Positions 11,052 to 60,139 of a stretch of 64,000 bases of DNA are shown here, in pieces (position 1 is the first letter of the stretch; each line of letters opens with the position of its first letter). Below the pieces are notes generated by a model. That model was not told the DNA's origin. It saw only the letters and a list, made by a program, of their open reading frames with translations, and ran no database searches. The stretch lies in assembly GCA_030390025.1 (NCBI GenBank), contig CM059452.1, forward strand, positions 10,292,001 to 10,356,000, in the 5' to 3' direction. Both the position numbers and the translations under genes were made by a program. Origin of the DNA: Squalus acanthias (Eukaryota).

Positions 11052-11090
11052 CACCTGAGGAAGGGGCCACGTAAGCTCCGAAAGCTTGTG
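11052..11090 (+). ncRNA. Minimal type I hammerhead ribozyme of Penelope A
   Basis: CAC-CUGAGGA-A-GGGGC(cacguaa)GCUCC-GAAA-GC-UU-GUG. Core boxes are present, helix II and helix I pair, and helix III is the palindrome AAGCUU. Confidence 0.8.
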
Positions 11091-11949
11091 TTTTCAAATA
11101 AAACTGTTGGACTATAACCTGGTGTTGTGCGACTTCTCATTTTGGTCTTATATAAGCAGAGAAAGTACCTAGTGCAGTAATAACTGAGACAGGCCCAGTG
11201 TAATATAAACAGAGACAATGTGTGGTGTTGTAATAAAATGACATGGTTGGCGTCAATTAAACTGCGACAGGGCCCAGTGTTATCTTTGTGGAATGCACTT
11301 GTTAACATTAAGAATGAAGTGCTTTGCACACACACACGAACACAAACACACACACATATATATAATGCTTTGTATGTGCTCTTTTCAGTGTTCCTGTTAA
11401 CCAGATGATAGTTGTGCACTTGGTATCATTAGGAACCTGTGGCAACCCATCAGGCGTTGCTGTGAGATCAGGGTCCCAGGCTCTGTCTAGCACAATAAGT
11501 GGGTCATGCGAAAGCTAAATAGAAAATTCTATGTAATATGAAGAGAGACAGGGTATGGTGCAGTATTAAAAAAGACAGGGTCGAGTGTAATATAAGCAGA
11601 GACATGGTCTAGTGCAGTAATACCGGAGACAGGGCCCAGTGTAATATAAACAGAGACATGGTCTAGAGTAGTAATAACTGAGACAGGGCCTTGTGTAATA
11701 TAAAAAGAGACATGATCTAGTGCAGTAATAACTGAGACAGGGCCGAGTGTGCTATTAACACAGACATAGTCCAGTACTGTGTAACTAAGACATAGTCTCG
11801 TGTAATTTAAACAGGGGCATGGTCTAGTGCAGTAATAAATTATATATGGCCTAATGCAATATAAACAGAGGCATTTTCTATTGCAGTAATAAATGAGATG
11901 GGGCCTAGTATAATATTGACAGAGACAGTGTCTAGTGTAGTAATAATTG

Positions 11950-30734: not shown

Positions 30735-30831
30735 TATGCGGAGATGCCGGTGTTGGACTGGGGTGGACAAAAGTGAGAAGTCGCACAACACCAGGTTATA
30801 GTCCAACAGTTTTATTTGAAATCACAAGCTT
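30735..30831 (-). mobile_element. Extreme 3' terminus of a Penelope-like element (left flank of the Tx1 array)
   Basis: Reverse complement AAGCTTGTGATTTCAAATAAAACTGTTGGACTATAACCTGGTGTTGTGCGACTTCTCA matches 11082-11139. Confidence 0.88.
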
Positions 30832-31796
30832 GTGGTGAGCAGCAGCAGCAGAGTGGTGGTCTCTGTGTCCAGGAAGAGGAGAAGGAGACCAGATAGCAGA
30901 CCACCACCAACAACCAACAACCACTACTGAGGTGCCTGGAGAGAGAGGACAGGAGAGGAGAAAGAAAAGGCCAAGGCCATTAACACCAGAGGAGAGGCCT
31001 TTCCACACTGCCTCCTCAATTGGCCTCCATTTTAGGAGAGGGAGCGAGGGGAGAAAACCATCACAACAAATATCATCTGTTTGGAAGGAGGAAGAAAGAT
31101 AGAAAGAACATCAGCTACAGGTGGGTGTTATTTCTGGGGCACTCTCCCAGAGACTTTGTTTTGTAGGTGGGGGGAGGAAAGAAGAAAAGAAGAGGGCCGG
31201 AACATCTAAGGGGTGTGTGTGTGTGTGTGTGTGTGGCTTTTGTAAAAGCTAGGCCGCACACACCATATTAAACACCCCTTTCCCATTGCCTGACCTGGGA
31301 CAGCTGGAGCTGCCTAGGTGAAGTCCCCAATTAACTTAATATTATTGGGCATCGTTAAGACCTGGTGCAGGACTGAGCCTGGGCATCTCCAGCTATCCCA
31401 GGTGAAGACATCTTCTCCCCCCACCAGAAGACCACCACCAAAGACTTGTATTACATCGGAGAGTGCACCCCCCTGCCAACACCCACCCACCCACCATCCT
31501 GAGTGGCGACCCTGCCCTTGCGGCTTCCCTCCTTCCACCCCCTCTCTCTCTCTCTTTGTCTCTTGTCTCTCTCTGCCTCTCTCTCTAAGAGGCACCTCAT
31601 CTATTTTTAATTAAGTACCCATTGAGCAGAGGGGAGAAGGCCCCTCTCCCAATTCAATCAACTAAAGGGAGAGGTGTGCCTTCAATTTAAGAGCTCCCTC
31701 TGCTCAGGGGAAAACTAAAACAAAAAAAAACCGAGGCCATTAACACCTTCAGGCCTGTGACTTGGGGTGAGTGTAGCCCTTAAAGAACCCTCCATT

Positions 31797-33954
31797 ATGG
31801 CGACCACATCTTCGCCGGTGGCGGGGGCAGCGAGGACGTACGTGAGCGTGGCAGCCGCGGCCACGGCCGCAGCCACGAGTCCTCCTGTTACCCCGTCACC
31901 TTTTACCCTCCTTACGAGGAAGAATGGGGTCAAGAGCTACACTCACCCCAACATGACTATAGAGGCGTGTGTAAAAGCCATGGCTGGGGTTGTCGGCCCT
32001 TCAGCCATCGTCGCCGCCTCTAAAATGTACGGCAAGGCTGTGTTCTTCCTGGGGTCGGAGCGGGCGGTGTCCCTGGCCATCGAGAAGGGGCTCACCGTGG
32101 GCGGGACCTTCCTGCCGGTGGACCCCCTTGAGGCCACCGCGCAAAGGATTGTGGTTTCCAACGTCCCGCCCTTTGTTCCGGGTGAGCTCCTCCTCCCCCA
32201 CCTACGTCAACTGGGGGAGGTGAGGTCGGGGATCACACCCATCCCGCTCGGCTTCCGGGAAGCCAGCCTTCGGCACGTCTTCTCCTTCCGGCGCCAGCTT
32301 TTCGTCCGGCTGGCGCGGGAGGAGGACGCGGACGGCGCGTTCACGGTGCTCCACGGGGGGACCGCCCACCGCGTCTTCTGGACCTCGGACGGCGTGCGGT
32401 GCTACGCCTGTAAGGAGGTGGGGCACGTCCGCAAAAACTGCCCCGCCTCCAAGGCCGCCACGACACCTGGCGCGGCCGGGGTTGGCGCCGCCGCCCCCCC
32501 TCCCCCTGATACTGTCCGCGCGTCGACGGCGACGGATGCGCGGTCGAAATCGGAGGCCAACACCACCACGGCCTCCGGCGGGGAGGAGGGAGAGCGTCCG
32601 GGGGGAAGGAAGGCGCGTAGGAAAACTAAACACCTAAGGGCGGATCCCCTCGCGGAGGAAACATCGGAATTGACCGAACTCACGCCCGAGTATATCGCGG
32701 AGTTGGTCGGGACGCATGAGACTGGGGGGGTCCTCGTGCCCGGGCCCGTGACCGTGACCGCAACCGCCGAGGAGGCTAAATCAAGACCTGCGGCCGGGCT
32801 CGGGCCCGAGGGGCCCAAGAAACCCAGTCGTCGGAAGGGGGCAGAGAGGGAGGCCCCAGCAGACATGGAGGCCTCCCCCTCTCCGGGCCCCAACTTGTTA
32901 AAAAGAAAGCTCCGCCCCCAGCAGGAAGACTGCGAGGAGGAAGGTCCCTCCGCAAAAGGGGGGCAGTCGCCCGCCGCGGGTGCTGCGCCCCACCCCACCA
33001 CCGTCATCGTCGCGCGCGAGCGGCGGGGGTCGTCTGTCCCTCGGGAGGGTGAGACAGCCGAGTCTGTCCGACCTGTGCCTCCCGGGGATGGGGAAGAGAC
33101 CCTGCCCGTGGGGGGGGGCACGGAACAACCCGCGGAGGGAAATGTAGAACCTGAACCGTTGCTCCTCGCCGGGTCGGGCGTCCTGGGGACTGGGGCGGGC
33201 GAGGCCAAAGAGGCTGAAGCCGAGCCCGCCTTTTATAACCCAGACATCTCCCAGGGACTGCTCGACCTGGTGGAGGACTTTAACAATCCCCAGCCCGCTG
33301 GGTCGGAGGTTGGTGGCGGGGAGACAGAAAGACCCCTGACTCCGTCTCTGTTGTTGGCGCCGGACGTGCTGGAGGAATTTGGGATTATTTTCTCCCCGGT
33401 TTCTCCGGTCGCCCCGGCGCCTGAGGCGGGGGGGGGGCCCCGAACCGCCGCCGCCGCCTCCCGGCCCGGCGCCCCTGAAGGAGCCCAGGGTGGACTCCTC
33501 TGCCACCGATCCTGGGGGTGGGATCGTGACGGAGGCGGGGCCGGCCGGTGCGGCCGAGCCGTTCGCTGCACCCTGTGTGACGGACGGGTTGGCCGCCGGT
33601 GACGACCTCCCGGAGGAGGACGGGGACTCGGTGTTGGGCAACGAGGACGATTTGGAGTCCATCGGCAGCGAGGCGATGGACGCCCTCGTGCCCTTCACCG
33701 ACTCTCCCCTCATCCCCGTAGGGGAACTCCGGGATTTTATGGCCATGAGCCAGGGTCGTCACAAGAAGATCCGGCTGGCCCTCGACAAGTGGTCGGAGCT
33801 GACGCTGCTCGTCGTGTCCGTCCGCGCCGCCGTTAAAATCATGGGCGCGGACAAGGACGTTGGCCGGCTCGAGCTGCGTCGGCTCAAGAGCTTCCACACT
33901 GGGCTGCTGAGGGAGTGGCGGTCGTCAGTGACCGCGCTCCCTCCCCTCCGTTAG
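31797..33954 (+). CDS. Tx1 ORF1, copy 1 (zinc-knuckle protein), frameshift in the poly-G at ~33430
   Basis: CYACKEVGHVRKNC knuckle. The C-terminus is in another frame compared with copy 2. Confidence 0.85.
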
Positions 33955-33979
33955 GTAGAGGTTGCACTATGCTTCTGAG

Positions 33980-36900
33980 ATGAAGATAACCATAGCCAGC
34001 CTCAACATCAACGGCAGCAGGGAGGCGCGCCGTAGATTCAATAACTTCTCGGTCCTTCGGGACGGGAAATATGCGGTGTGCTTCCTGCAAGAAACCCACA
34101 CCGTTCCGGGAGACGAGGCTACGTGGCTCCTGGAGTGGCAAGGAGGGGTCAGCATGAGTCACCTCTCTAACAATTCCTGCGGGGTGGCTGTCTTGCTGGC
34201 CCCGCATTTTCAGCCGGAGATCTTGAGGGTCAAGGAGCACGTGCCCCAGGTCACTGTTCGCCTGGGAGGCGTGCCGCTCCATTTATTGAACGTGTACGCC
34301 CCCCGGACCGGTGCGCAGCAAGTGCGCTTCTTCGGAGAAGTGTCCGCTCTTCTGGGCTCCATCGACGTGGGCGAGTGCGTCATCCTCGGGGGGGATTTCA
34401 ATTGTACCCTCGAGGCGCGGGACCGGTCGGGTCCCCCGCGAAGCCCGGCGGCGATGGAGAAGTTGCGGGACCTGGTCGGGTCCTTCGACTTGGTGGACGT
34501 CTGGCGAAATCTCCATCCCGACTCCAGCGCCTTCACGAGCGTGAGGTCTGGAGGAGGAAGGTCCAGAATCGACCGCCTTTACATTTCCCGGGCGTACGTC
34601 TCCTGCGTTCCGGCGGCTTCCATGCGGCCGGTGCCGTGCACGGACCACCACCTGGTGTGGGCGGAGCTCGCTCCGCTGCGCGCGCGGGGGGGGTCCGCGT
34701 ACTGGCATTTTAACAACCTGCTGCTGGAGGACGCGCGGTTCCGGGATTCGTTTCGCCGGTTCTGGGCCGACTGGAGAAGGAAGCGGGGAGGCTTCCCCTC
34801 CTTGAGGCTATGGTGGGACGTGGGCAAGGCTCACGTCCGCGTCTTCTGTCAGGAGTACGCGAAGGGGTCGACCAAGAGGCGGGAGGCCCGGGTCGGGCGA
34901 TTGGAGAAAGAAGTGCTCGACCTGGAGTCCCGTCTCGGTCAAGTCGTCGAGGACCCGGCCCTGCGGAAGGTGTACGAAGAGAAGAAGGGCGCGCTGAAGG
35001 ACCTGCAGCTGGTCGGGTCCCGAGGCGCGTACGTGAGGTCGCGGATCCAGTTCCTGCGGGACCTGGACCGCGGCTCCCCCTTCTTCTACTCGCTGGAAAA
35101 AAGACGGGGGGTCCGTAAGCAGCTCTTGGGGCTGCTGGCCGACGACGGATCTCTGGTCTCGGATCCGGAGGGCATCAGCGCGGAGGCCCGGGCCTATTAC
35201 GGGGCTCTGTTCTCTTCGGATCCGTCCAGCGAGGATGCGCGCAGAGTTTTGTGGGAGGACCTGCCGAAGGTCGGCCCGGAGGGCGCCGAGAATTTAGAAG
35301 CTCCGCTAAGCCTGGCGGAGCTGACCGGCGCCCTGCGCCAGCTCTCGAGGGGCAAGTCCCCGGGGCTGGACGGGCTGACCGTGGAGTTCCACAGGGCGTT
35401 CTGGGACGTCTTGGGGGACGACTACGCGCGGGTCCTGGGGGAAAGTCTGGCGACCGGGGAGATGCCCCTCTCTTGGCGCAGGGCGGTCATCGTCCTGCTG
35501 CCCAAGAAGGGCGATCTCCGCCTACTTAAGAACTGGCGCCCGGTCTCCCTCCTCAGCACGGACTACAAAATTTTCGCCAGGGCTATGTCTGCTCGCCTTG
35601 GCACCGTGCTGGCCCGCATGATCCACCCCGACCAGTCCTACACGGTCCCGGGCCGGAGTATCCACGATAACATCCATCTGGTCCGGGACCTGGTCCACCA
35701 TTCCCAGAGGGCTGGTCTGTCGGTCGCCTTCCTTTCCCTGGATCAGGAGAAGGCGTTCGACAGGGTGGATCACGAGTATCTTTTCGGGACTCTGCGCGCA
35801 TTCGGGTTCGGGACGCATTTCGTCGCCCGGATCCGACTTCTGTACGCCGCCGCGGAGTGTCTGATTAAAGTTAACGGGTCTTTGACGGCGCCCCTTCGCT
35901 TCGGGAGGGGGGTGCGTCAGGGATGCCCCATGTCCGGTCAGTTATACGCCGTTTGCGTGGAGCCTTTCCTGCGCCTCTTGCGGAAGAGGTTGACGGGACT
36001 GGCTCTGCAAGGGCCGGGCGTGGAGGTGGTCCTCTCGGCTTACACCGATGACGTGCTCCTCGCGGTCACGGATCCCGTCGACTTGCGGAGGATGCGAGAA
36101 TGCCAGCAGATTTACTCGGACGCATCCTCCGCCAAGATCAACTGGGAGAAATGTTCTGGACTCCTGGTGGGCCCATGGCGGGTGGACTCCCTGCCGGAGG
36201 AGTTCGGGCCTTTCGCCTGGAGCACCACGCACCTCCTCTACCTGGGAGTCTACCTCAGCCCGGCCGAGGACGCCTGGCCGGCGAACTGGCAAGAGCTGGA
36301 GGCCAAAGTCACCGCTCGCCTAGGACGCTGGACAGGACTGCTCCGAGTGTTGTCCTACAGGGGTCGAGCGCTGGTCATAAACCAGCTGGTGGCCGCCATG
36401 TTGTGGTACCGGTTGATCACTTTGATCCCTCCCCCTGCGTTTGTCGCCAAGATGCAGAAGAAGCTCGTCGACTTCTTCTGGGACAAAAGGAAGCACTGGG
36501 TCTCTGCCGCGGTTTTGAGTCTCCCGCTTAGGGAGGGCGGTCAGGCGCTGGTGTGCCTTCGCACCCAGGCGGCGACTTTCCGTCTTCAGACGCTGCAGAG
36601 ATACCTGTACGTGGAGAATCCTCCTAGGTGGCGTGCGCTGGCGACGTATTTCTTCCGCCAGCTGCACGGCCTCAATTACGACACGCAGCTCCTGTTTGTG
36701 AGAGTGGGTGGCACGCGTGCCAGCCTGCGGGAGCTGCCTGTCTTCTACCAGGAACTGCTATGGGTTTGGAACAGCGTCGCCTCCGAGCGCAGTTCTCCCC
36801 CGTCAGGAGCGGCGGCCGTCCTTCGGGAGCCGCTGTTCAGGAATCCGCACCTCCACGACCGCGGGTTCGGCTGGCTGGCGGAGGGCAGGGCTGTGCCCGG

Positions 36901-37867
36901 TAAGGTGACCAGAGTCGGGGACCTGCTCGATGGCGGAGGAGCGGGCTGGATGGCGCCGGAGGAGTTGGCGAGGCGCATGTCCTGGGTCAACGTCCGGCTC
37001 GCGGTCAAAGCCATCGAGTCGCTAAAAGTGGCACTGGGCCCCGTCTCCACTAGGTGTGTCGAGGAGGCTCAAGCACGTGGGGCGATCCCGTCCGAACTGA
37101 CCCCCGTTCGGACGGAATTCCTTATCGGCGCCCGGCCCCGAATCCTCCCTCGGGAGCCGCCGCCTCACCACTTGAGCCTTCTCGGAGAAATGCCCTCCGT
37201 GCCCTTTCAATCCGCACGGAGGCGTTTCCTGTACGGGCTGCTCCTGCACACTCTCCACTTTGCCATCTTCGTCTGCCGTCCGGACACGCCTTGGCGTACC
37301 ATCCTGCCGTCCGGCGGAGGCGAAGGTCCCCATTGGAAGGCTCTCTACGCGGGAGTCTTCCCTTGTTCTATTGGGGACTTGGCCTGGAGGGTGTTGCACG
37401 GAGCAGTCCCGTGCAATAGGATTTTAAGTAGGTTTACGGACTCCCAGGCTGCTTGCCATTTTTGCGGCCTGGAGGAGTCCGTTTATCACATTTATGTTGA
37501 ATGTGAGAGGTTGCAGCCCCTCTTTCATTATTTGAAGGGGCTGCTCCTCAATTTCTGGTTGCACTTCAGCCCCACGCTCCTGATCTACGGTCACCCGGTG
37601 CGGAGGGGAGCGGGTAGGTCGGAGGACCTCCTCGTAGGACTGCTCCTGGGCCTGGCCAAGAAAGCCATTAATTGGTCCAGGCAGCGGGCGGTCGAGGGGG
37701 TCGTTCGGCCCGATTGCCTGCCTCTCTTCCGCGGCCATGTTCGCGCCCGGGTGGCCCTGGAGATGGAGCACGCGGTGTCCGCCGGCACGCTTGAGTTTTT
37801 CCGCGACCGGTGGGCGCCGCGGGGACTGGAGTGCATCGTCACCCCGCACTTTCAAATTTTAATTTGA
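33980..37867 (+). CDS. Tx1 ORF2, copy 1 (open; 12-bp in-frame deletion in the endonuclease; YTDD)
   Basis: SLNING, LQETH, GGDFN, TDHH; KSPGLDG, DQEKAFD, GVRQGCPMS, YTDD; CHFC..H..C. Confidence 0.92.
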   Translation: MKITIASLNINGSREARRRFNNFSVLRDGKYAVCFLQETHTVPGDEATWLLEWQGGVSMSHLSNNSCGVAVLLAPHFQPEILRVKEHVPQVTVRLGGVPLHLLNVYAPRTGAQQVRFFGEVSALLGSIDVGECVILGGDFNCTLEARDRSGPPRSPAAMEKLRDLVGSFDLVDVWRNLHPDSSAFTSVRSGGGRSRIDRLYISRAYVSCVPAASMRPVPCTDHHLVWAELAPLRARGGSAYWHFNNLLLEDARFRDSFRRFWADWRRKRGGFPSLRLWWDVGKAHVRVFCQEYAKGSTKRREARVGRLEKEVLDLESRLGQVVEDPALRKVYEEKKGALKDLQLVGSRGAYVRSRIQFLRDLDRGSPFFYSLEKRRGVRKQLLGLLADDGSLVSDPEGISAEARAYYGALFSSDPSSEDARRVLWEDLPKVGPEGAENLEAPLSLAELTGALRQLSRGKSPGLDGLTVEFHRAFWDVLGDDYARVLGESLATGEMPLSWRRAVIVLLPKKGDLRLLKNWRPVSLLSTDYKIFARAMSARLGTVLARMIHPDQSYTVPGRSIHDNIHLVRDLVHHSQRAGLSVAFLSLDQEKAFDRVDHEYLFGTLRAFGFGTHFVARIRLLYAAAECLIKVNGSLTAPLRFGRGVRQGCPMSGQLYAVCVEPFLRLLRKRLTGLALQGPGVEVVLSAYTDDVLLAVTDPVDLRRMRECQQIYSDASSAKINWEKCSGLLVGPWRVDSLPEEFGPFAWSTTHLLYLGVYLSPAEDAWPANWQELEAKVTARLGRWTGLLRVLSYRGRALVINQLVAAMLWYRLITLIPPPAFVAKMQKKLVDFFWDKRKHWVSAAVLSLPLREGGQALVCLRTQAATFRLQTLQRYLYVENPPRWRALATYFFRQLHGLNYDTQLLFVRVGGTRASLRELPVFYQELLWVWNSVASERSSPPSGAAAVLREPLFRNPHLHDRGFGWLAEGRAVPGKVTRVGDLLDGGGAGWMAPEELARRMSWVNVRLAVKAIESLKVALGPVSTRCVEEAQARGAIPSELTPVRTEFLIGARPRILPREPPPHHLSLLGEMPSVPFQSARRRFLYGLLLHTLHFAIFVCRPDTPWRTILPSGGGEGPHWKALYAGVFPCSIGDLAWRVLHGAVPCNRILSRFTDSQAACHFCGLEESVYHIYVECERLQPLFHYLKGLLLNFWLHFSPTLLIYGHPVRRGAGRSEDLLVGLLLGLAKKAINWSRQRAVEGVVRPDCLPLFRGHVRARVALEMEHAVSAGTLEFFRDRWAPRGLECIVTPHFQILI

Positions 37868-38977
37868 TTTATTAAGTTTCATTTCAAGTTTTAATTGATT
37901 TACAGTAAATTTGCGTTCTGTCAAACCAAAAAGATGAACACCAGGTTATAGTCCAACAGTTTTATTTGAAATCACAAGCTTTCGGAGCTGCTGACTGAGG
38001 AGCAGCAGCAGCAGAGTGGTGGTCTCTGTGAGCAGGAAGAGGAGAAGGAGAAGGAGAAGGAGACCAGACAGCAGACCACCACCAACAACCAACAACCACA
38101 ACAACTGAGGTGCCTGGAGAGAGAGGACAGGAGAGGAGAGGGAGAAGAAAGGAAAGCCAAGGCCATCAACACCAGAGGGGAGGCCTTTCCACACTGCCTC
38201 CTCAATTGGCCTCCATTTTAGGAGAGGGAGAGAGGGGAGAAAACAACACAACAACCATCAACTGTTTGGAAGGAGGGAGGAAGGAAAGAACATCAGCTAC
38301 AGGTGGGTGTGATTCTGGTGCACTCTCCCAGAGACTTTGTTTTGTAGGTGGGGGGAGGAAAGAAGAAAAGAAGAGGGCCGAAACATCCAAGGGGTGTGTG
38401 TGTGTGTGTGTGGCTTTTGTAAGAACTAGGCCGCACACACCATATTAAACACCCCTTTCCCATTGCCTGACCTGGGACAGACAGCTGGAGCTGCCTAGGT
38501 GAAGTCCCCAATTAATTTAATCTTATTGGGCATCGTTAAGACCTGGTGCAGGACTGAGCCTGGGCATCTCCAGCTATCCCAGGTGAAGACATCTTCTCCC
38601 CCCACCAGAAGACCACCACCAAAGACTTTTATTACATCGGAGAGTGCACCCCCCTGCCAACACCCACCCACCCACCATCCTGAGTGGCGACCCTGCCCTT
38701 GCGGCTTCCCTCCTTCCCACCCCCCCTCTCTCTCTCTCTTTGTCTCTTGTCTCTCTCTGCCTCTCTCTCTAAGAGGCACCTCAATCTATTTTAATTAAGT
38801 ACCCATTGAGCAGAGGGCAGAAGGCCCCTCTCCTAATTAATTCATAAAAAGGGAGAGGTGTGCCTTCAATTTAAGAGCTCCCTCTGCTCAGGGGAAAAAA
38901 AACAAAAAAAACCGAGGCCATTAACACCTTCAGGCCTGTGACTTGGGGTGAGTGTAGCCCTTAAAGAACCCTCCATT

Positions 38978-41135
38978 ATGGCGACCACATCTTCGCCGGT
39001 GGCGGGGGCAGCGAGGACGTACGCGAGCGTGGCAGCCGCGGCCACGGCCTGCAGCCACGAGTCCTCCTGTTACCCCGTCACCTTTTACCCTCCTTACGAG
39101 GAAGAATGGGGTCAAGAGCTACACTCACCCCAACATGACTATAGAGGCGTGTGTAAAAGCCATGGCTGGGGTTGTCGGCCCTTCAGCCATCGTCGCCGCC
39201 TCTAAAATGTACGGCAAGGCTGTGTTCTTCCTGGGGTCGGAGCGGGCGGTGTCCCTGGCCATCGAGAAGGGGCTCACCGTGGGCGGGACCTTCCTGCCGG
39301 TGGACCCCCTTGAGGCCACCGCGCAAAGGATTGTGGTTTCCAACGTCCCGCCCTTTGTTCCGGGTGAGCTCCTCCTCCCCCACCTACGTCAACTGGGGGA
39401 GGTGAGGTCGGGGATCACACCCATCCCGCTCGGCTTCCGGGAAGCCAGCCTTCGGCACGTCTTCTCCTTCCGGCGCCAGCTTTTCGTCCGGCTGGCGCGG
39501 GAGGAGGACGCGGATGGCGCGTTCACGGTGCTCCACGGGGGGACCGCCCACCGCGTCTTCTGGACCTCGGACGGCGTGCGGTGCTACGCCTGTAAGGAGG
39601 TGGGGCACGTCCGCAAAAACTGCCCCGCCTCCAAGGCCGCCAAGACACCTGGCGCGGCCAGGGTTGGCGCCGCCGCCCCCCCTCCCCCTGATACTGTCCG
39701 CGCGTCGACGGCGACGGATGCGCGGTCGAAATCGGAGGCCAACGCCACCACGGCCTCCGGCGGGGAGGAGGGAGAGCGTCCGGGGGGAAGGAAGGCGCGT
39801 AGGAAAAATAAACATCTAAGGGCGGATCCCCTCGCGGAGGAAACATCGGAGTTGACCGAACTCACGCCCGAGTATATCGCGGAGTTGGTCGGGACGCATG
39901 AGACTGGGGGGGTCCTCGTGCCCGGGCCCGTGACCGTGACCGCAACTGCTGAGGCAGCTGAATCAAGACCTGCGGCCGGGCTCGGGCCCGAGGGGCCCAA
40001 GAAACCCAGTCGTCGGAAGGGGGCAGAGAGGGAGGCCCCAGCAGACATGGAGGCCTCCCCCTCTCCGGGCCCCAACTTGTTAAAAAGAAAGCTCCGCCCC
40101 CAGCAGGAGGACTGCGAGGAGGAAGGTCCCTCCGCAAAAGGGGGGCAGTCGCCCGCCGCGGGTGCTGCGCCCCACCCCACCACCGTCATCGTCGCGCGCG
40201 ATCGGCAGGGGTCGTCTGTCCCTCGGGAGGGTGAGACAGCCGAGTCTGTCCGACCTGTGCCTCCCGGGGATGGGGAAGAGACCCTGCCCGTGGGGGGGGG
40301 CGCGGAACAACCCGCGGAGGGAAATGTAGTTTCGGAACCGTTGCTCCTCGCCGGGTCGGGCGTCCTGGGGACTGGGGCGGGCGAGGCCAAAGAGGCTGAA
40401 GCCGAGCCCGCCTTTTATAACCCAGATATCTCCCAGGGACTGCTCGACCTGGTGGAGGAGTGTAGCAATCCCCAGCCCGCTGGGTCGGAGGTTGGTGGCG
40501 GGGAGACGGAAAGCCCCCTGACTCCGTCTCTGTTGTTGGCGCCGGACGTGCTGGAGGAATTTGGGATTATTTTCTCCCCGGTTTCTCCGGTCGCCCCGGC
40601 GCCTGAGGCGGGGGGGGGCCCCGAACCGCCGCCGCCGCCTCCCGGCCCGGCGCCCCTGAAGGAGCCCAGGGTGGACTCCTCTGCCACCGATCCTGGGGGT
40701 GGGATCGTGACGGAGGCGGGGCCGGCCGGTGCGGCCGAGCCGTTCGCTGCACCCTGTGTGACGGACGGGTTGGCCGCCGGTGACGACCTCCCGGAGGAGG
40801 ACGGGGACTCGGTGGTGGGCATCGAGGACGATTTGGAGTCCATCGGCAGCGAGGTGATGGACGCCCTCGTGCCCTTCACCGACTCTCCCCTCATCCCCGT
40901 AGGGGAACTCCGGGATTTTATGGCCGTGAGCCAGGGTCGTCACAAGAAGATCCGGCTGGCCCTCGACAAGTGGTCGGAGCTGGCGCTGCTCGTCGTGTCC
41001 GTCCGCGCCGCCGTTAAAATCATGGGCGCGGACAAGGACGTTGGCCGGCTCGAGCTGCGTCGGCTCAAGAGTTTCCACACTGGGCTGCTGAGGGAGTGGC
41101 GGTCGTCAGTGACCGCGCTCCCTCCCCTCCGTTAG
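38978..41135 (+). CDS. Tx1 ORF1, copy 2 (1-bp insertion at ~39050; open from 39135)
   Basis: GGCCTGCAGCC versus GGCCGCAGCC in the other copies; 666-aa downstream ORF. Confidence 0.85.
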
Positions 41136-41160
41136 GTAGAGGTTGCACTATGCTTCTGAG

Positions 41161-44100: not shown

Positions 44101-45060
44101 ACCAGAGTCGGGGACCTGCTCGATGGCGGAGGAGCGGGCTGGATGGCGCCGGAGGAGTTGGCGAGGCGCATGTCTTGGGTCAACGTCCGGCTCGCGGTCA
44201 AAGCCATCGAGTCGCTAAAAGTGGCACTGGGCCCCGTCTCCACTAGGTGTGTCGAGGAGGCTCAAGCACGTGGGGCGATCCCGTCCGAACTGACCCCCGT
44301 TCGGACGGAATTCCTTATCGGCGCCCGGCCCCGAATCCTCCCTCGGGAGCCGCCGCCTCACCACTTGAGCCTTCTCGGAGAAATGCCCTCCGTGCCCTTT
44401 CAATCCGCACGGAGGCGTTTCCTGTACGGGCTGCTCCTGCACACTCTCCACTTTGCCATCTTCGTCTGCCGTCCGGACACGCCTTGGCGTACCATCCTGC
44501 CGTCCGGCGGAGGCGAAGGTCCCCATTGGAAGGCTCTCTACGCGGGAGTCTTCCCTTGTTCTATTGGGGACTTGGCCTGGAGGGTGTTGCACGGAGCAGT
44601 CCCGTGCAATAGGATTTTAAGTAGGTTTACGGACTCCCAGGCTGCTTGCCATTTCTGCGGCCTGGAGGAGTCCGTCTATCACATTTATATTGAGTGTGAG
44701 AGGTTGCAGCCCCTCTTTCATTATTTGAAGGGGCTGCTCCTCAATTTCTGGTTGCACTTCAGCCCCACGCTCCTGATCTACGGTCACCCGGTGCGGAGGG
44801 GAGCGGGTAGGTCGGAGGACCTCCTCGTAGGACTGCTCCTGGGCCTGGCCAAGAAAGCCATTAATTGGTCCAGGCAGCGGGCGGTCGAGGGGGTCGTTCG
44901 GCCCGATTGCCTGCCTCTCTTCCGCGGCCATGTTCGCGCCCGGGTGGCCCTGGAGATGGAGCACGCGGTGTCCGCCGGCACGCTTGAGTTTTTCCGCGAC
45001 CGGTGGGCGCCGCGGGGGCTGGAGTGCATCGTCACCCCGGACTTCCAAATTTTGATTTGA
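41161..45060 (+). CDS. Tx1 ORF2, copy 2, intact APE endonuclease-reverse transcriptase (1299 aa)
   Basis: All APE and RT motifs present, including YADD and the C-terminal CCHC. Confidence 0.95.
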   Translation: MKITIASLNINGSREARRRFNNFSVLRDGKYAVCFLQETHTVPGDEATWLLEWQGGVSMSHLSNNSCGVAVLLAPHFQPEILRVKEHVPGRLLQVTVRLGGVPLHLVNVYAPRTGAQQVRFFGEVSALLGSIDVGECVILGGDFNCTLEARDRSGPPRSPAAMEKLRDLVGSFDLVDVWRNLHPDSSAFTSVRSGGGRSRIDRLYISRAYVSCVPAASMRPVPCTDHHLVWAELAPLRARGGSAYWHFNNLLLEDARFRDSFRRFWADWRRKRGGFPSLRLWWDVGKAHVRVFCQEYAKGSTKRREARVGRLEKEVLDLESRLGQVVEDPALRKVYEEKKGALKDLQLVGSRGAYVRSRIQFLRDLDRGSPFFYSLEKRRGVRKQLLGLLADDGSLVSDPEGISAEARAYYGALFSSDPSSEDARRVLWEDLPKVGPEGAENLEAPLSLAELTGALRQLSRGKSPGLDGLTVEFHRAFWDVLGDDYARVLGESLATGEMPLSWRRAVIVLLPKKGDLRLLKNWRPVSLLSTDYKIFARAMSARLGTVLARMIHPDQSYTVPGRSIHDNIHLVRDLVHHSQRAGLSVAFLSLDQEKAFDRVDHEYLFGTLRAFGFGTHFVARIRLLYAAAECLIKVNGSLTAPLRFGRGVRQGCPMSGQLYAVCVEPFLRLLRKRLTGLALQGPGVEVVLSAYADDVLLAVTDPVDLRRMRECQQIYSDASSAKINWEKCSGLLVGPWRVDSLPEEFGPFAWSTTHLLYLGVYLSPAEDAWPANWQELEAKVTARLGRWTGLLRVLSYRGRALVINQLVAAMLWYRLVTLIPPPAFVAKMQKKLVDFFWDKRKHWVSAAVLSLPLREGGQALVCLRTQAATFRLQTLQRYLYVENPPRWRALATYFFRQLHGLNYDTQLLFVRVGGTRASLRELPVFYQELLWVWNSVASERSSPPSGAAAVLREPLFRNPHLHDRGFGWLAEGRAVPGKVTRVGDLLDGGGAGWMAPEELARRMSWVNVRLAVKAIESLKVALGPVSTRCVEEAQARGAIPSELTPVRTEFLIGARPRILPREPPPHHLSLLGEMPSVPFQSARRRFLYGLLLHTLHFAIFVCRPDTPWRTILPSGGGEGPHWKALYAGVFPCSIGDLAWRVLHGAVPCNRILSRFTDSQAACHFCGLEESVYHIYIECERLQPLFHYLKGLLLNFWLHFSPTLLIYGHPVRRGAGRSEDLLVGLLLGLAKKAINWSRQRAVEGVVRPDCLPLFRGHVRARVALEMEHAVSAGTLEFFRDRWAPRGLECIVTPDFQILI

Positions 45061-46124
45061 TTTGTTAAGTTTCATTTAAAGTTTTAATTGATTTACAGTA
45101 AATTTTGATTTGTCCAACCAAAAAGAGCAACACCAGGTTATAGCCTCAGCAGCCAGGAGAAGGAGAGTGAGGAGCAGCAGCAGCAGAGTGGTGGTCTCTG
45201 TGACCAGGAAGAGGAGAAGGAGAAGGAGACAGACAGCAGGCCACCACCAACAACCAACCACAACAACTGAGGTGCCTGGAGAGAGAGGACAGGAGAGGAG
45301 AGAGGGGAGAAAGGAAGGCCAAGGCCATCAAAACCAGAGGAGAGGCCTTTCCACACTGCCTCCTCAATTGGCCTCCATTTTAGGAGAGGGAGAGAGGGGA
45401 GAAAACAACACCAACAAACATCAACTGTTTGGAAGGAGGGAGGAAGGAAAGAACAGCTACAGGTGGGTGTGATTCTGGTGCACTCTCCCAGAGACTTTGT
45501 TTTGTAGGTGGGGGGAGGAAAGAAGAAAAGATTAGGGCCGGAACATCCAAGGGGTGTGTGTGTGTGGCTTCTGTAAAAGCTAGGCCGCACACACCATATT
45601 AAACACCCCTTTCCCATTGCCTGACCTGGGACAGCTGGAGCTGCCTAGGTGAAGTCCCCAATTAATTTAATCTTATTGGGCATCGTTAAGACCTGGTGCA
45701 GGACTGAGCCTGGGCATCTCCAGCTATCCCAGTTGAAGACATCTTCTCCCCCCACCAGAAGACCACCACCAAAGACTTTTATTACATCGGAGAGTGCACC
45801 CCCCTGCCAACACCCACCCACCCACCATCCTGAGTGGCGACCCTGCCCTTGCGGCTTCCCTCCTTCCCACCCCTCTCTCTCTCTCTTTGTCTCTTGTCTC
45901 TCTCTGCCTCTCTCTCTAAGAGGCACCTCATTATCTTTTAATTAAGTACCTATTGAGCAGAGGGGAGAAGGCCCCTCTCCTAATTAATTCATATAAAGGG
46001 AGAGGTGTGCCTTCAATTTAAGAGCTCCCTCTGCTCAGGGGAAAACAGAAACAAAAAACCGAGGCCATTAACACCTTCAGGCCTGTGACATGGGGTGAGT
46101 GTAGCCCTTAAAGACCCGTCCATT

Positions 46125-48274
46125 ATGGCGAGTACATCTTCGTCGGTGGCGGGGGCAGCGAGGACGTATGCGAGCGTGGCAGCCGCGGCCGCAGCCACGA
46201 GTCCTCCTGTTACCCCGTCACCTTTTACCCTCCTTACGAGGAAGAATGGGGTCAAGAGCTACACTCACCCCAACATGAATATAGAGGCGTGTGTTAAAGC
46301 CATGGCTGGGGTTGTCGGCCCTTCAGCCATCGTCGCCGCCTCTAAAATGTACGGCAAGGCTGTGTTCTTCCTGGGGTCGGAGCGGGCGGTGTCCCTGGCC
46401 ATCGAGAAGGGGCTCACCGTGGGCGGGACCTTCCTGCCGGTGGACCCCCTTGAGGCCACCGCGCAAAGGATTGTGGTTTCCAACGTCCCGCCCTTTGTTC
46501 CGGGTGAGCTCCTCCTCCCCCACCTACGTCAACTGGGGGAGGTGAGGTCGGGGATCACACCCATCCCGCTCGGCTTCCGGGAAGCCAGCCTTCGGCACGT
46601 CTTCTCCTTCCGGCGCCAGCTCTTCGTCCGGCTGGCGCGGGAGGAGGACGCGGATGGCGCGTTCACGGTGCTCCACGGGGGGACCGCCCACCGCGTCTTC
46701 TGGACCTCGGACGGCGTGCGGTGCTACGCCTGTAAGGAGGTGGGGCACGTCCGCAAAAACTGCCCCGCCTCCAAGGCCGCCACGACACCTGGCGCGGCCA
46801 GGGCTGGCGCCGCCGCCCCCCCTCCCCCTGATACTGTCCGCGCGTCGACGGCGACGGATGCGCGGTCGAAATCGGAGGCCAACGCCATCACGGCCTCCGG
46901 CGGGGGGGAGGGAGAGCGTCCGGGGGGAAGGAAGGCGCGTAGAAAAAATAAACACCTAAGGGCGGATCCCCTCGTGGAGGAAACATCCGAGTTGACCGAA
47001 CTCACGCCCGAGTACATTGCGGAGTTGATCGGGACGCCTGAGACTGGGGGGGTCCTCGTGCCCGGGCCCGTGACCGTGACCGCAACTGCTGAGGCAGCTG
47101 AATCAAGACCTGCGGCCGGGCTCGGGCCCGAGGGGCCCAAGAAACCCAGTCGTCGGAAGGGGGCAGAGAGGGAGGCCCCAGCAGACATGGAGGCCTCCCC
47201 CTCTCCGGGCCCCAACTTGTTAAAAAGAAAGCTCCGCCCCCAGGAGGAGGACTGCGAGGAGGAAGGTCCCTCCGCAGAAGGGGGGGAGTCGCCCGCCGCG
47301 GGTGCTGCGCCCCACCCCACCACCGTCATCGTCGCGCGTGATCGGCAGGGGTCGTCTGTCCCTCGGGAGGGTGAGACAGCCGAGTCTGTCCGACCTGTGC
47401 CTCCCAGGGATGGGGAAGAGACCCTGCCCGTGGGGGGGGGCGCGGAACAACCCGCGGATATCAATAATAAAAAACCTGAACCGTTGCTCCTCGCCGGGTC
47501 GGGCGTCCTGGGGACTGGGGCGGGCGAGGCCAAAGAGGCTGAAGCCGAGCCCGCCTTTTACAATCCAGATATCTCCCAGGGACTGCTCGACCTGGTGGAG
47601 GAGTATAACAATCCCCAGTCCGCTGGGTCGGAGGTTGGTGGCGGGGAGACAGAAAGCCCCCTGACTCCGACTCTGATGTTGGCGCCGGACGTACTGAAGG
47701 AATTTGAGATTATTTTCTCCCCGGTTTCTCCGGTCGCTCTGGCGCCTGAGGCGGGGGGGGCCCCGAACCGCCGCCGCCTCCCGGCCCGGCGCCCCTGAAG
47801 GAGCCCAGGGTGGACTCCTCTGCCACCGATCCTGGGGGTGGGATCGTGACGGAGGCGGGGCCGGCCGGTGCGGCCGAGCCGTTCGCTGCACCCCGTGCGA
47901 CAGACGGGTCGGCCGCCGGTGACGACCTCCCGGAGGAGGACGGGGACTCGGTGGTGGGCATCGAGGACGATTTGGAGTCCATCGGCAGCGAGGTGATGGA
48001 CGCCCTCATGCCCTTCACCGACTCTCCCCTCATCCCCGTTGGGGAACTCCGGGATTTTATGGCCATGAGCCAGGGTCGTCACAAGAAGATCCGGCTGGCC
48101 CTCGACAAGTGGTCGGAGCTGGCGCTGCTCGTCGTGTCCGTCCGCGCCGCCGTTAAAATCATGGGCGCGGACAAGGACGTTGGCCGGCTCGAGCTGCGTC
48201 GGCTCAAGAGTTTCCACACTGGGCTGCTGAGGGAGTGGCGGTCGTCAGTGACCGCGCTCCCTCCCCTCCGTTAG
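46125..48274 (+). CDS. Tx1 ORF1, copy 3 (frameshift at ~47760)
   Basis: Split ORFs 46095-47798 and 47810-48274. Confidence 0.85.
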
Positions 48275-48299
48275 GTAGAGGTTGCACTATGCTTCTGAG

Positions 48300-51200
48300 A
48301 TGAAGATAACCATAGCCAGCCTCAACATCAACGGCAGCAGGGAGGCGTGCCGTAGATTCAATAACTTCTCGGTCCTTCGGGACGGGAAATATGCGGTGTG
48401 CTTCCTGCAAGAAACCCACACCGTTCCGGGAGACGAGGCCACGTGGCTCCTGGAGTGGCAAGGAGGGGTCAGCATGAGTCACCTCTCTAACAATTCCTGC
48501 GGGGTGGCTGTCTTGCTGGCCCCGCATTTTCAGCCGGAGATCTTGAGGGTCAAGGAGCACGTGCCGGGCCGCTTGCTCCAGGTCACTGTTCGCCTGGGAG
48601 GCGTGCCGCTCCATTTAGTGAACGTGTACGCCCCCCGGACCGGTGCGCAGCAAGTGCGCTTCTTCGGAGAAGTGTCCACTCTTCTGGGCTCCATCGACGT
48701 GGGCGAGTGCGTCATCCTCGGGGGGGATTTCAATTGTACCCTCGAGGCGCGGGACCGGTCGGGTCCCCCGCGAAGCCCGGCGGCGATGGAGAAGTTGCGG
48801 GACCTGGTCGGGTCCTTCGACTTGGTGGACGTCTGGCGAAATCTCCATCCCGACTCCAGCGCCTTCACGAGCGTGAGGTCTGGAGGAGGAAGGTCCAGAA
48901 TCGACCGCCTTTACATTTCCCGGGCGTACGTCTCCTGCGTTCCGGCGGCTTCCATGCGGCCGGTGCCGTGCACGGACCACCACCTGGTGTGGGCGGAGCT
49001 CGCTCCGCTGCGCGCGTGGGGGGGGTCCGCGTACTGGCATTTTAACAACCTGCTGCTGGAGGACGCGCGGTTCCGGGATTCGTTTCGCCGGTTCTGGGCC
49101 GACTGGAGAAGGAAGCGGGGAGGCTTCCCCTCCTTGAGGCTATGGTGGGACGTGGGCAAGGCTCACGTCCGCGTCTTCTGTCAGGAGTACGCGAAGGGGT
49201 CGACCAAGAGGCGGGAGGCCCGGGTCGGGCGATTGGAGAAAGAAGTGCTCGACCTGGAGTCCCGTCTCGGTCAAGTCGTCGAGGACCCGGCCCTGCGGAA
49301 GGTGTACGAAGAGAAGAAGGGCGCGCTGAAGGACCTGCAGCTGGTCGGGTCCCGAGGCGCGTACGTGAGGTCGCGGATCCAGTTCCTGCGGGACCTGGAC
49401 CGCGGCTCCCCCTTCTTCTACTCGCTGGAAAAAAGACGGGGGGTCCGTAAGCAGCTCTTGGGGCTGCTGGCCGACGACGGATCTCTGGTCTCGGATCCGG
49501 AGGGCATCAGCGCGGAGGCCCGGGCCTATTACGGGGCTCTGTTCTCTTCGGATCCGTCCAGCGAGGATGCGCGCAGAGTTTTGTGGGAGGACCTGCCGAA
49601 GGTCGGCCCGGAGGGCGCCGAGAATTTAGAAGCTCCGCTAAGCCTGGCGGAGCTGACCGGCGCCCTGCGCCAGCTCTCGAGGGGCAAGTCCCCGGGGCTG
49701 GACGGGCTGACCGTGGAGTTCCACAGGGCGTTCTGGGACGTCTTGGGGGACGACTACGCGCGGGTCCTGGGGGAAAGTCTGGCGACCGGGGAGATGCCCC
49801 TCTCTTGGCGCAGGGCGGTCATCGTCCTGCTGCCCAAGAAGGGCGATCTCCGCCTACTTAAGAACTGGCGCCCGGTCTCCCTCCTCAGCACGGACTACAA
49901 AATTTTCGCCAGGGCTATGTCTGCTCGCCTTGGCACCGTGCTGGCCCGCATGATCCACCCCGACCAGTCCTACACGGTCCCGGGCCGGAGCAATCCACGA
50001 CAACATCCATCTGGTCCGGGACCTGGTCCACCATTCCCAGAGGGCTGGTCTGTCGGTCGCCTTCCTTTCCCTAGATCAGGAGAAGGCGTTCGACAGGGTG
50101 GATCACGAGTATCTTTTCGGGACTCTGCGCGCATTCGGGTTCGGGACGCATTTCGTCGCCCGGATCCGACTTCTGTACGCCGCCGCGGAGTGTCTGATTA
50201 AAGTTAACGGGTCTTTGACGGCGCCCCTTCGCTTCGGGAGGGGGGTGCGTCAGGGATGCCCCATGTCCGGTCAGTTATACGCCGTTTGCGTGGAGCCTTT
50301 CCTGCGCCTCTTGCGGAAGAGGTTGACGGGACTGGCTCTGCAAGGGCCGGGCGTGGAGGTGGTCCTCTCGGCTTACGCCGATGACGTGCTCCTCGCGGTC
50401 ACGGATCCCGTCGACTTGCGGAGGATGCGAGAATGCCAGCAGATTTACTCGGACGCATCCTCCGCCAAGATCAACTGGGAGAAATGTTCTGGACTCCTGG
50501 TGGGCCCATGGCAGGTGGACTCCCTGCCGGAGGAGTTCGGGCCTTTCGCCTGGAGCACCACGCACCTCCTCTACCTGGGAGTCTACCTCAGCCCGGCCGA
50601 GGACGCCTGGCCGGCGAACTGGCAAGAGCTGGAGGCCAAAGTCACCGCTCGCCTAGGGCGCTGGACAGGACTGCTCCGAGTGTTGTCCTACAGGGGTCGA
50701 GCGCTGGTCATAAACCAGCTGGTGGCCGCCATGTTGTGGTACCGGTTGGTCACTTTGATCCCTCCCCCTGCGTTTGTCGCCAAGATGCAGAAGAAGCTCG
50801 TCGACTTCTTCTGGGACAAAAGGAAGCACTGGGTCTCTGCCGCGGTTTTGAGTCTCCCGCTTAGGGAGGGCGGTCAGGCGCTGGTGTGCCTTCGCACCCA
50901 GGCGGCTACTTTCCGTCTTCAGACGCTGCAGAGATACCTGTACGTGGAGAATCCTCCTAGGTGGCGTGCGCTGGCGACGTATTTCTTCCGCCAGCTGCAC
51001 GGCCTCAATTACGACACGCAGCTCCTGTTTGTGAGAGTGGGTGGCACGCGTGCCAGCCTGCGGGAGCTGCCTGTCTTCTACCAGGAACTGCTATGGGTTT
51101 GGAACAGCGTCGCCTCCGAGCGCAGTTCTCCCCCGTCAGGAGCGGCGGCCGTCCTTCGGGAGCCGCTGTTCAGGAATCCGCACCTCCACGACCGCGGGTT

Positions 51201-52200
51201 CGGCTGGCTGGCGGAGGGCAGGGCTGTGCCCGGTAAGGTGACCAGAGTCGGGGACCTGCTCGATGGCGGAGGAGCGGGCTGGATGGCGCCGGAGGAGTTG
51301 GCGAGGCGCATGTCCTGGGTCAACGTCCGGCTCGCGGTCAAAGCCATCGAGTCGCTAAAAGTGGCACTGGGCCCCGTCTCCACTAGGTGTGTCGAGGAGG
51401 CTCAAGCACGTGGGGCGATCCCGTCCGAACTGACCCCCGTTCGGACGGAATTCCTTATCGGCGCCCGGCCCCGAATCCTCCCTCGGAAGCCGCCGCCTCA
51501 CCACTTGAGCCTTCTCGGAGAAATGCCCTCCGTGCCCTTTCAATCCGCACGGAGGCGTTTCCTGTACGGGCTGCTCCTGCACACTCTCCACTTTGCCATC
51601 TTCGTCTGCCGTCCGGACACGCCTTGGCGTACCATCCTGCCGTCCGGCGGAGGCAAAGGTCCCCATTGGAAGGCTCTCTACGCGGGAGTCTTCCCTTGTT
51701 CTATTGGGGACTTGGCCTGGAGGGTGTTGCACGGAGCAGTCCCGTGCAATAGGATTTTAAGTAGGTTTACGGACTCCCAGGCTGCTTGCCATTTCTGCGG
51801 CCTGGAGGAGTCCGTCTATCACATTTATGTTGAATGTGAGAGGTTGCAGCCCCTCTTTCATTATTTGAAGGGGCTGCTCCTCAATTTCTGGTTGCACTTC
51901 AGCCCCACGCTCCTGATCTACGGTCACCCGGTGCGGAGGGGAGTGGGTAGGTCGGAGGACCTCCTCGTAGGACTGCTCCTGGGCCTGGCCAAGAAAGCCA
52001 TTAATTGGTCCAGGCAGCGGGCGGTCGAGGGGGTCGTTCGGCCCGATTGCCTGCCTCTCTTCCGCGGCCATGTTCGCGCCCGGGTGGCCCTGGAGATGGA
52101 GCACGCGGTGTCCGCTGGCACGCTTGAGTTTTTCCGCGACCGGTGGGCGCCGCGGGGACTGGAGTGCATCGTCACCCCGGACTTTCAAATTTTAATTTGA
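48300..52200 (+). CDS. Tx1 ORF2, copy 3 (frameshift at ~49991)
   Basis: GGAGCAATCC versus GGAGTATCC in the other copies; split ORFs 48282-50201 and 50098-52200. Confidence 0.88.
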
Positions 52201-52269
52201 TTTATTAAGTTTCATTTAAAGTTTTAATTGATTTACAGTAAATTTGGGTTCTGTCAAACCAAAAAGATG

Positions 52270-53622
52270 AACACCAGGTTATAGTCCAACAGATTTATTT
52301 AATTTTACAAGCTTTCGAAGCAGTTCGCTCCTTCGTCAGGTAAGTTAGCAATGAGAGAATCTCCCAGAATTCACAATTTAAACCCAGACAAAATCTATTC
52401 ACATTATTCCCTACAACAAAGAGCACAGCCAAGACAATGAGATGTGTCCCAGGGGGTCCAACGTGTCAAACCACCTGCTGGCTGCATATCCTGTCAATTT
52501 GTGTTCTTGTTAGTCTTTTAAAAAAAAAAACACCTGGGAAGACCGGCCATGATGTCAAGTCACGTTCTGTATCGTGACATGAACCCGATATCGCGATTGA
52601 GGCCATCCTCATGAGTGCGGAACTTGGCTATCAGTTTCTGCTCTATGATTTTGCGCTGTCGTGTATCTCGAAGGCCGCCTTGGAGAACGCTTACCCGCAG
52701 ATCCGAGGCTGAATGCCCCTGGCTGTTGAAGTGTTCCCCGACTGGGAGGCAACCCTCCTGCCTGGCGATTGTTGCGCGGTGTCCGTTCATACGTTGTCTC
52801 AGTGTCTGCATGGTCTCGCCGATGTACCATGCTCTGGAGCATCCTTTACTGCAACGTATCAGGTAGACAACGTTGGCTGAGTCACATGAGTATGTACCGT
52901 GTACCTGGTGGGTAGTGTCCTCACGTGTAATGATGGTATCTGTGTCCATGATTTGGCATGTCTTGCAGAGGTTGCCGTGGCAGGGTTGTGTGGTGTCTTG
53001 GTTGCTGTTCTCCTGAAAGATGGGTAATCTGCTGCGAACGATGGTACTTTTGAGGTTAGGCGGCTGCTTGAAGGCGAGTAGTGGAGGCGTGGGGATGGCC
53101 TTAGCAAGGTGTTCGTCGTCATCGATGACATGTTGAAGGCTGCGAAGAACATGGCGTAGTTATTCCGCTCCGGGGAAGTACTGGACGACGTAGGGTACTC
53201 TGTTGGTTGTGTCCCGTGTTCGTCTTCTGAGGAGGTCTATGCGGTTTTTCGCTGTGGCCCGTCGGAACTGTCGATCGATGAGTCGAGCGTCATATCCCGT
53301 TCTTACGAGGGCGTCTTTCAGTGTCCGTAGGTGTCCATCGCGTTCCTCCTCGTCTGAGCAGATCCTGTGTATTCGCAGGGCTTGTCCATAGGGGATGGCT
53401 TCTTTAACGTGGTTAGGGTGGAAGCTGGAGAAGTGGAGCATCGTGAGGTTGTCCGTGGGCTTGCGGTAGAGTGAAGTGCTGAGGCGTCCGTCTTTGATGG
53501 AGATTCGTGTGTCCAAGAATGAAACCGATTCTGAGGAGTAGTCCATGGTGAGTTTGATGGTGGGATGGAACCTGTTGATGCTATCGTGTAGTCCTTTCAG
53601 TGATCCTTCACCATGGGTCCAT
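52270..53622 (-). mobile_element. Penelope-like retroelement copy B, 5'-truncated and frameshifted; host of the Tx1 array
   Basis: WTHGEGSL..FHPTIKLTMD..LYRKPT; NVVYLIRC..WYIGET..GLNRD; stop at 52560; 3' region with a hammerhead. Confidence 0.92.
52305..52343 (-). ncRNA. Minimal type I hammerhead ribozyme of Penelope B
   Basis: UUAC-CUGACGA-A-GGAGC(gaacu)GCUUC-GAAA-GC-UU-GUAA; its helices covary with copy A. Confidence 0.8.
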
Positions 53623-54850: not shown

Positions 54851-55059
54851 AGGTGACTGCAGGGGTTTGGATTCTGTTATTAATCACATCCAGGACTGAA
54901 CCATGGCAGAGTGCCCGTGCACTTCGGTTTCTGTGTGAATTATTGATTAATTTTCTCTTCAATGGGATCACAGAAACTCATTCTCCATTCACTAATTGGG
55001 GCTTTCACTGTTCCCCAGCATGCCCCGCGGGGGAGAATGTGCCCCATTCACACTGGAGG

Positions 55060-55375: not shown

Positions 55376-55444
55376 TCGCACGGCCGTCTTTGTAAAGGAC
55401 CAAAACGTGGGCAGGGCCTCAGGGTCCCCTTGAGTGTGGTAGTG

Positions 55445-60125: not shown

Positions 60126-60139
60126 CACAGTGTGTGTTT

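Follow-up and report, generated by a model that had tools for sequence, protein, structure and literature searches.

Target choice in the Tx1 clade of retrotransposons has reportedly been studied by Kojima and Fujiwara (2004) and Christensen (2000), as cited in a paper on crocodilian Tx1 families. The available text of that paper gives piggyBac, Mariner, Harbinger and long terminal repeat (LTR) elements, RNA genes and microsatellites as known Tx1 targets (PMC4494074), and according to the accessible part of another paper, nicking by the purified endonuclease of Xenopus Tx1L is almost confined to its own target (PMC1950540). R2 RNA is described, in the portion of the source available, as using about 28 nt of upstream target sequence for annealing of the cDNA end (PMC13580325). 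Penelope-like elements, in the parts of the reports at hand, consist of a reverse transcriptase (RT) plus GIY-YIG layout flanked by direct repeats (PMC11167929), with a minimal hammerhead ribozyme in the pseudo-LTR (pLTR) (PMC4209133). Here we analyzed a window of 64,000 nt from Squalus acanthias (assembly GCA_030390025.1, contig CM059452.1, positions 10,292,001 to 10,356,000, forward strand), which contains three head-to-tail copies of a Tx1 element of ~7.15 kb each, every copy consisting of open reading frames (ORFs) 1 and 2, inserted at a Penelope end. Our data make it almost certain that this Tx1 targets the Penelope tail with base-exact precision. Penelope-like elements thus appear to be a new target class for a clade known to aim at mobile elements; outside figure 3 and the supplements, the text of PMC4494074 mentions neither Penelope nor sharks, and no Penelope-targeting Tx1 was found in the literature searched, with Repbase and Dfam lying outside that search.

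All three copies end just before a common motif, AACACCAGGTTATAG (starting at 37937, 45129 and 52270 on the forward strand), which also stands ahead of copy 1 (30787) and is found uninterrupted at another Penelope 3' terminus in the window (11112–11126, reverse strand), largely as an earlier note on this DNA had described. With up to two mismatches, AACACCAGGTTATAG had six matches against 0.15 expected, and none of 100 shuffles gave six. Across the 3.7-Gb genome, a 17-letter pattern from the Tx1 3' end gave 828 matches (control: 3). These ends continued with N-AACACCAGGTT in 656 cases and with N-AACAC in 766, compared to 0–3 in the reversed-pattern controls. When 90 fetched matches were collapsed to 69 loci, 59 were on target and about one in seven was off target, counting as off target one locus (L163) that lies within Penelope sequence. 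By both measures, a single repeat type occupied far more than the 20% of flanks that is used in the text of PMC4494074 to recognize sequence-specific families. Unrelated 3' flanks in most copies were therefore not seen, and the idea of the earlier note that the family uses Penelope ends as a multicopy target was borne out; we infer that these ends may act as a "safe harbour".

The position, orientation and frequency of the insertions can be read directly from the assembly, as can the duplications of 12–17 bp that flank truncated copies both on and off target. At off-target loci, 12–15 bp of local sequence were duplicated starting from AACAC, and the C^AACAC core was invariant, with C at −1 in 7/7 loci (L005, L016, L019, L022, L024, L178 and L231). 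An older copy was located at T^ACAC (L175), and no duplication was present at one repeated locus (L009–L011) and at L225. Insertion length was linked to the target: 46 copies of ≥1.5 kb were on target and one was off target, compared to 13 and 9 of the shorter copies (Fisher p = 7e-5), and the sole long off-target locus was a truncated unit of 2.27 kb. That full-length copies occurred only on target is consistent with a completion step which needs homology. The downstream flanks followed several Penelope subfamilies, and the upstream half of the Penelope tail preceded the outer 5' junctions (45 distinct left flanks). Together with the local duplications at off-target loci, these observations indicate that the motif is the target and not the tail of the element.

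Judged by its ORF2, the element is a Tx1-clade LINE (long interspersed nuclear element). This protein is 50% identical to Xenopus Tx1L (UniRef YTX2 entry, P0004) over the whole length and 64% identical in the RT. Consistent with the assignment made earlier, it fell into a 7-row clade with Tx1L (support 100/99) in a midpoint-rooted tree of 32 RT rows, which were chosen from 120 listed homologs and comprised no named Keno, Mutsu, Kibi or L1 rows. Among the matches listed, the closest named fragments were from cartilaginous fishes (P0094, 75%, and P0075, 69%; both partial). In all three window copies, ORF1 contains a zf-CCHC zinc knuckle (PF00098) and ORF2 contains APE endonuclease (PF03372), RT (PF00078) and zf-RVT (PF13966) domains, and the catalytic motifs of the endonuclease align with those of the L1 endonuclease. 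Copy 2 had been proposed as an intact candidate. Its ORF2 is indeed the only one in the window that is open over the full length, but its ORF1 is frameshifted by a one-base insertion. As copy 1 carries an in-frame deletion in the endonuclease and a shift in ORF1, and copy 3 has shifts in both frames (Table 1), none of the three has both ORFs intact as assembled; the single-base shifts may stem from sequencing errors. Among 44 full-length genomic units (not de-duplicated), ORF2 was open in 25, ORF1 in 14 and both in nine. The elements are >99% alike in ORF2. The family is young and high-copy, with apparently intact members.

The targeted Penelope is very abundant, far more so than the Tx1. The C-terminal protein of the copy on the right flank had 57,179 candidate matches in the genome, and CACAACACCAGGTT sites numbered 106,741. 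Full Penelope copies (L151–L157) contain, flanked by two direct repeats, an ORF of 892 aa with a YIDD motif and a GIY-YIG-type end; the RT was matched by Pfam, and the GIY-YIG domain was read by eye, without a Pfam match. A minimal hammerhead ribozyme is predicted in the pLTR by a descriptor that had 81 matches, of which 77 retained the inner pairs of stem I and 80 retained stem II. A single pair of stem I was C-G in 38 and T-A in 38 matches, which in these related sequences counts as one event, and an Rfam scan of 52200–52500 gave no hammerhead match. As noted previously, the insertion point is located 39 nt past the predicted cut. It is also 52 nt ahead of the Penelope ATG, which places the site within the pLTR at both element ends. 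The Tx1 copies are antisense to Penelope, and the hammerhead is on the strand opposite the Tx1 RNA. Insertions in the pLTR ahead of the Penelope ORF were found in 0/45 left flanks, which is uninformative given that 174 ORF-proximal sites (from one Penelope subfamily) compare to 106,741 in total, 3' tails being far commoner. Two candidate ORF-proximal insertion pairs turned out to be tandem Penelopes.

Several further observations concern the Penelope sequences. A second truncated copy on the forward strand (9194–11147) has an unoccupied target, and its ORF is broken by a ~140-bp insert (~10407–10546) matching a repeat at 27918–28004. Genome-wide, Penelope ends very often form inverted pairs, 100–300 bp or a few kb apart (L014, L017, L026, L069). 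Some joints of these inversions begin at the hammerhead core; they look like the commonest Tx1 head, which may have arisen from them. At L163, within a rearranged inverted pair, the Tx1 3' end abuts the pLTR at its second CAACAC, on the sense strand of Penelope.

The 5' junctions in the window consist of 45, 52 and 15 nt of target sequence in copies 1, 2 and 3, followed by three unlike heads. Since the heads differ and each of them recurs at other genomic loci, separate insertions are favored over tandem duplication, in line with the earlier interpretation. In contrast, the expectation that removal of the array would restore one Penelope end did not hold. The outer flanks belong to different Penelope subfamilies and differ at −14, −36 and −48; the right-flank subfamily carries ATTTATTTAATTTTAC, and its full tails (19/19 such rows) differ from the left flank at the same three positions. 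A rejoined end would therefore be a chimera, and the likeliest source of the mixed flanks is recombination between Tx1 copies at two Penelope ends.

Beyond the window, 30/30 fetched full-length 5' ends were preceded by the target motif, and each head variant joined at a fixed target position (+15, +45 or +52). Leader alleles were compared in single full-length copies (29 given, 27 parsed, comprising 22 with a long leader and five with a short head). In 11 of the 22 long-leader copies, the left and right sides differed at recurrent positions, seven of them at +24. L220 has the same private insertion at +18 left and right but differs at +37, +40 and +48, L219 has its private +20 allele on both sides but differs at +34 and +36, and among the five short-head copies, three show a G at +11 that is confined to the left. 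At L193, TGATAG is kept fused to the head where the target itself is deleted. From these mosaics of local and inherited alleles we infer a target-derived RNA leader: the RNA is likely to begin within upstream target sequence, and its cDNA to anneal to the local top strand. The RNA may also read through into AACAC at its 3' end. No RNA data set was listed among the public runs containing the sequence, and contigs of public runs (4/16 runs) compared with 37700–38300 included none that crosses the junction with 31 letters on each side, which has no bearing on expression or on other species. Tandem truncated units that share one 5' break and carry unlike 3' alleles (L062, L088, L163, L165, L188) fit re-insertion that copies the resident front end, with later conversion as another possible cause; the tandem units at L022 differ at one site only. 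Long arrays of short truncated units were also seen (L062/L063, L188, L231), often with alternating 3' alleles, and L062 contains at least nine units of ~332 bp.

Targeting of the Penelope pLTR by an APE nick, combined with a target-derived leader, is a very probable overall explanation. The APE endonuclease likely nicks at C^AACACCAGG on the antisense strand of the Penelope pLTR and thereby primes reverse transcription; it would read the core strictly and prefer a longer Penelope context. Full-length RNA would begin inside the upstream target and carry a leader of 15–52 nt, whose cDNA would anneal to the local top strand and complete the 5' junction as a mosaic of local and donor alleles, with the crossover from cDNA to local sequence at variable points. 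Every insertion would recreate the site, allowing head-to-tail stacking. Most likely, the hammerhead is no more than a bystander and a marker of the conserved pLTR, and an involvement of the ribozyme in targeting is unlikely.

Several points weigh against this account. Tandem units and possible assembly duplicates are counted among the 828 ends, 62 of which lack AACAC. Selection against long insertions elsewhere could also yield the link between length and target. Half of the long-leader copies (11/22) lack a mismatch at any recurrent position, and private alleles are common to both sides out to +31 at L096 and to about +57 at L179/L180, which lie within an array; a long true duplication also explains these loci. 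Recombination of copies that occupy different Penelope ends can also produce left/right mismatches, a course suggested by the mixed flanks of the window itself. Moreover, support for the mechanism comes from genomic sequence. The main rival to the leader keeps the same targeting and replaces inheritance by a long true duplication, with a second-strand cut 45–52 nt downstream at hairpin-forming hammerhead DNA, followed by recombination or conversion. Besides L096 and the two-subfamily flanks of the window, the clustering of junctions at the AAGCTT palindrome and the stem II loop fits such a course. We nevertheless regard it as rather unlikely: L220 and L219 change from local to non-local alleles within one locus, every head variant joins at a fixed target position across many loci, the target bases at L193 are fused to the head despite the deleted target, and truncated copies show duplications of only 12–17 bp.

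The remaining alternatives concern the targeting itself. An enzyme recognizing C^AACAC alone, with Penelope ends prevailing through their abundance, their accessibility or their tolerance by selection, would agree with off-target sites that share only about six bases with the target and with the 106,741 Penelope sites available. The genome, however, contains roughly 2–3 million CAACAC (1.8 million if all bases were equally frequent; 3.2 million by extrapolation from a 232-kb sample), so that such an enzyme would land in Penelope in 3–6% of cases, whereas 59/69 loci were on target (binomial p about 1e-61 at 6%). Even the short copies, on which selection is weak, were on target in 13/22 cases. 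We regard recognition of the core alone as very improbable. It is very improbable that a Penelope ribozyme, RNA or protein brings the Tx1 machinery to the pLTRs. The distance of 39 nt to the predicted cut and the commonest head, which opens with a piece like the sense hammerhead core, would suit this idea, but the ribozyme and the Tx1 RNA are on opposite strands, the parts of a cis hammerhead do not occur in the required order in leader and head (by inspection), and insertions occur at ends with a rearranged or missing hammerhead region (L083, L164 and L021-type flanks). A cis hammerhead formed from leader plus head was likewise ruled out by inspection, and folds gave ordinary hairpins. It is scarcely credible that the motif belongs to the 3' end of the element itself, or to a 3'-transduced flank, and that the array arose by plain tandem duplication. 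AACAC does follow 766/828 ends without poly(A), where the RNA may well include a few read-through bases, and some arrays have identical junctions (L065–L068). The flank tables already contradict this notion: elements that are >99% alike in ORF2 have downstream flanks differing with the Penelope subfamily, off-target copies duplicate local sequence, the upstream target half precedes the outer 5' junctions, and the three window heads differ while each is present at other loci.

A second Tx1 family was found inserted antisense in the 5' untranslated region (UTR) of the first element at GGGG(TG)n (L091, L094, L192, L204). This sister element is 7.8 kb long with ~175-bp repeats in its 3' UTR (L091:747-8516; also L111–L135), and compared with the first element, its ORF2 shows 96% identity across the RT and 91% across the endonuclease, whose hairpin loop, positioned by means of PDB 2v0r, carries two changes. 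According to the accessible text of PMC1950540, this loop affects nicking preference and is not a simple swappable module. In the best-matching sample (25 loci, 26 ends), 14 ends were in the 5' UTR, four in the 5' region of zinc-finger genes, three in tandem and five elsewhere. Strict specificity for the first element was not supported, as despite these 14/26 only 32/236 ends genome-wide were at the exact UTR site; general targeting of (CA)n was not supported either, CAC(AC)nCCC contexts being preferred. The sister head opens with zinc-finger target sequence and looks like another inherited leader. About 21 closely spaced sister-family 3' ends are present at G000:C4:43928424-43935394. A tentative and rather doubtful extension of our account is two-step, partly RNA-programmed targeting, in which a 6-base core would be nicked and pairing of target-derived RNA would set completion; the sister family, with a different leader of its own, would have switched to the 5' UTR of the first element and to 5' regions of zinc-finger genes, giving a three-tier Penelope/Tx1-A/Tx1-B chain. 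If this were true, full-length copies would arise only in Penelope tails, and target choice could be changed by swapping the RNA flanks and a few loop residues.

Table 1 Coordinates of the Tx1 array and of associated Penelope features in the window.
Feature	Position	Strand	Remarks
Outer half of Penelope pLTR tail, subfamily A type, upstream of insertion point	30736..30786	-	
45-nt target-like leader, copy 1 (local duplication + likely inherited target sequence)	30787..30831	+	
Tx1 copy 1	30832..37936	+	ORF1 from 31797, +1 shift 33428; ORF2 33980-37867, 12-base endonuclease deletion
52-nt target-like leader, copy 2	37937..37988	+	
Tx1 copy 2	37989..45128	+	Head resembles sense hammerhead core; ORF1 38978-41135, 1-base insertion 39050
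GGGG(TG)n tract, 5' UTR	38391..38412, also 31210-31235, 45551-45566	+	Sister Tx1 antisense insertion site at other loci; empty in window
Open ORF2, 1299 aa, APE endonuclease/reverse transcriptase/zf-RVT	41161..45060	+	50% identical to Tx1L over 100%
15-nt target duplication/leader, copy 3	45129..45143	+	
Tx1 copy 3	45144..52269	+	ORF1 from 46125, shifted near 47753; ORF2 48300-52200, shifted at 49992
5'-truncated Penelope-like element, subfamily B type	52270..53621	-	RT end, GIY-YIG-type C-terminus, 3' UTR, pLTR broken by array at 52270
Predicted minimal hammerhead ribozyme of pLTR	52305..52343	-	Predicted cut after 52309; descriptor match, compensatory stem I pair
Unoccupied Penelope pLTR end	11051..11147	+	Hammerhead motif 11051-11091; intact target 11112-11126 on -

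The window also contains other repeats. C2H2 zinc-finger repeats with 84-bp units are located at 54386–57140 (open frame 56431–57141), and the region upstream of them is 86–91% similar to the zinc-finger loci into which the sister Tx1 inserts. One satellite, at 17499–18559, is built of about 20 copies of a 54-bp unit, a second, at 19515–22360, of about 47 copies of a 61-bp unit (93% matches), and another 54-bp satellite family occurs at 9061–9185 and 11532–11954. Other LINE fragments with APE domains lie at 59111–60148 (reverse strand), 61639–62550 and 62622–63998 (both forward strand). An ORF stands ahead of one of them and has a domain similar to GDSL/SGNH esterases, as in CR1/L2-type ORF1.

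With this family, Penelope-like elements join the list of Tx1 targets, and a base-exact APE-type integrator becomes available that is young and high-copy and has apparently intact copies. The two families form a natural pair, similar in RT and endonuclease and different in the loop, at different sites, which makes the gain or change of APE specificity directly testable, and the leader mosaics allow the contribution of RNA-target pairing to be tested. Use as a gene-insertion tool is limited by off-target insertion at C^AACAC and by a target that was surveyed in this lineage alone.

Compared to described systems, the Penelope here resembles Penelope/Poseidon-type elements, for which the available portions of PMC4209133 and PMC11167929 report one RT plus GIY-YIG-type ORF between direct repeats, a hammerhead with palindromic helix III and a tail that repeats the element start; the shark Penelope tail differs in ending at or before the ATG, not inside the ORF. 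R2 in 28S ribosomal DNA, as far as the accessible text of PMC13580325 goes, retains in its RNA a short stretch of upstream target, as we propose for the shark Tx1. R2, however, uses a restriction-like endonuclease and its own 5' ribozyme, whereas the endonuclease of the shark Tx1 is of the APE type, no ribozyme belonging to this element was found, and its leader corresponds to sequence that lies downstream from the nick. The crocodilian families Tx1-Mar, Tx1-9_AMi, Tx1-8_Crp and Tx1-4_AMi (Kojima 2015, PMC4494074) likewise prefer mobile elements, namely Mariner, Harbinger and LTR retrotransposons, but are old according to the text at hand (85–87% to consensus), in contrast to the young shark Tx1 with both ORFs open in 9/44 units. 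A further related system is Tx1L of Xenopus laevis, the type element of the clade, which shares the two ORFs, the APE-RT organization of ORF2 and, in the available text of PMC4494074, a fixed insertion site inside another transposon. That transposon is Tx1D, of the piggyBac type, whereas the shark element uses the pLTR of a Penelope-like retroelement, with an endonuclease that is 47% identical to that of Tx1L and has a hairpin loop three residues shorter.

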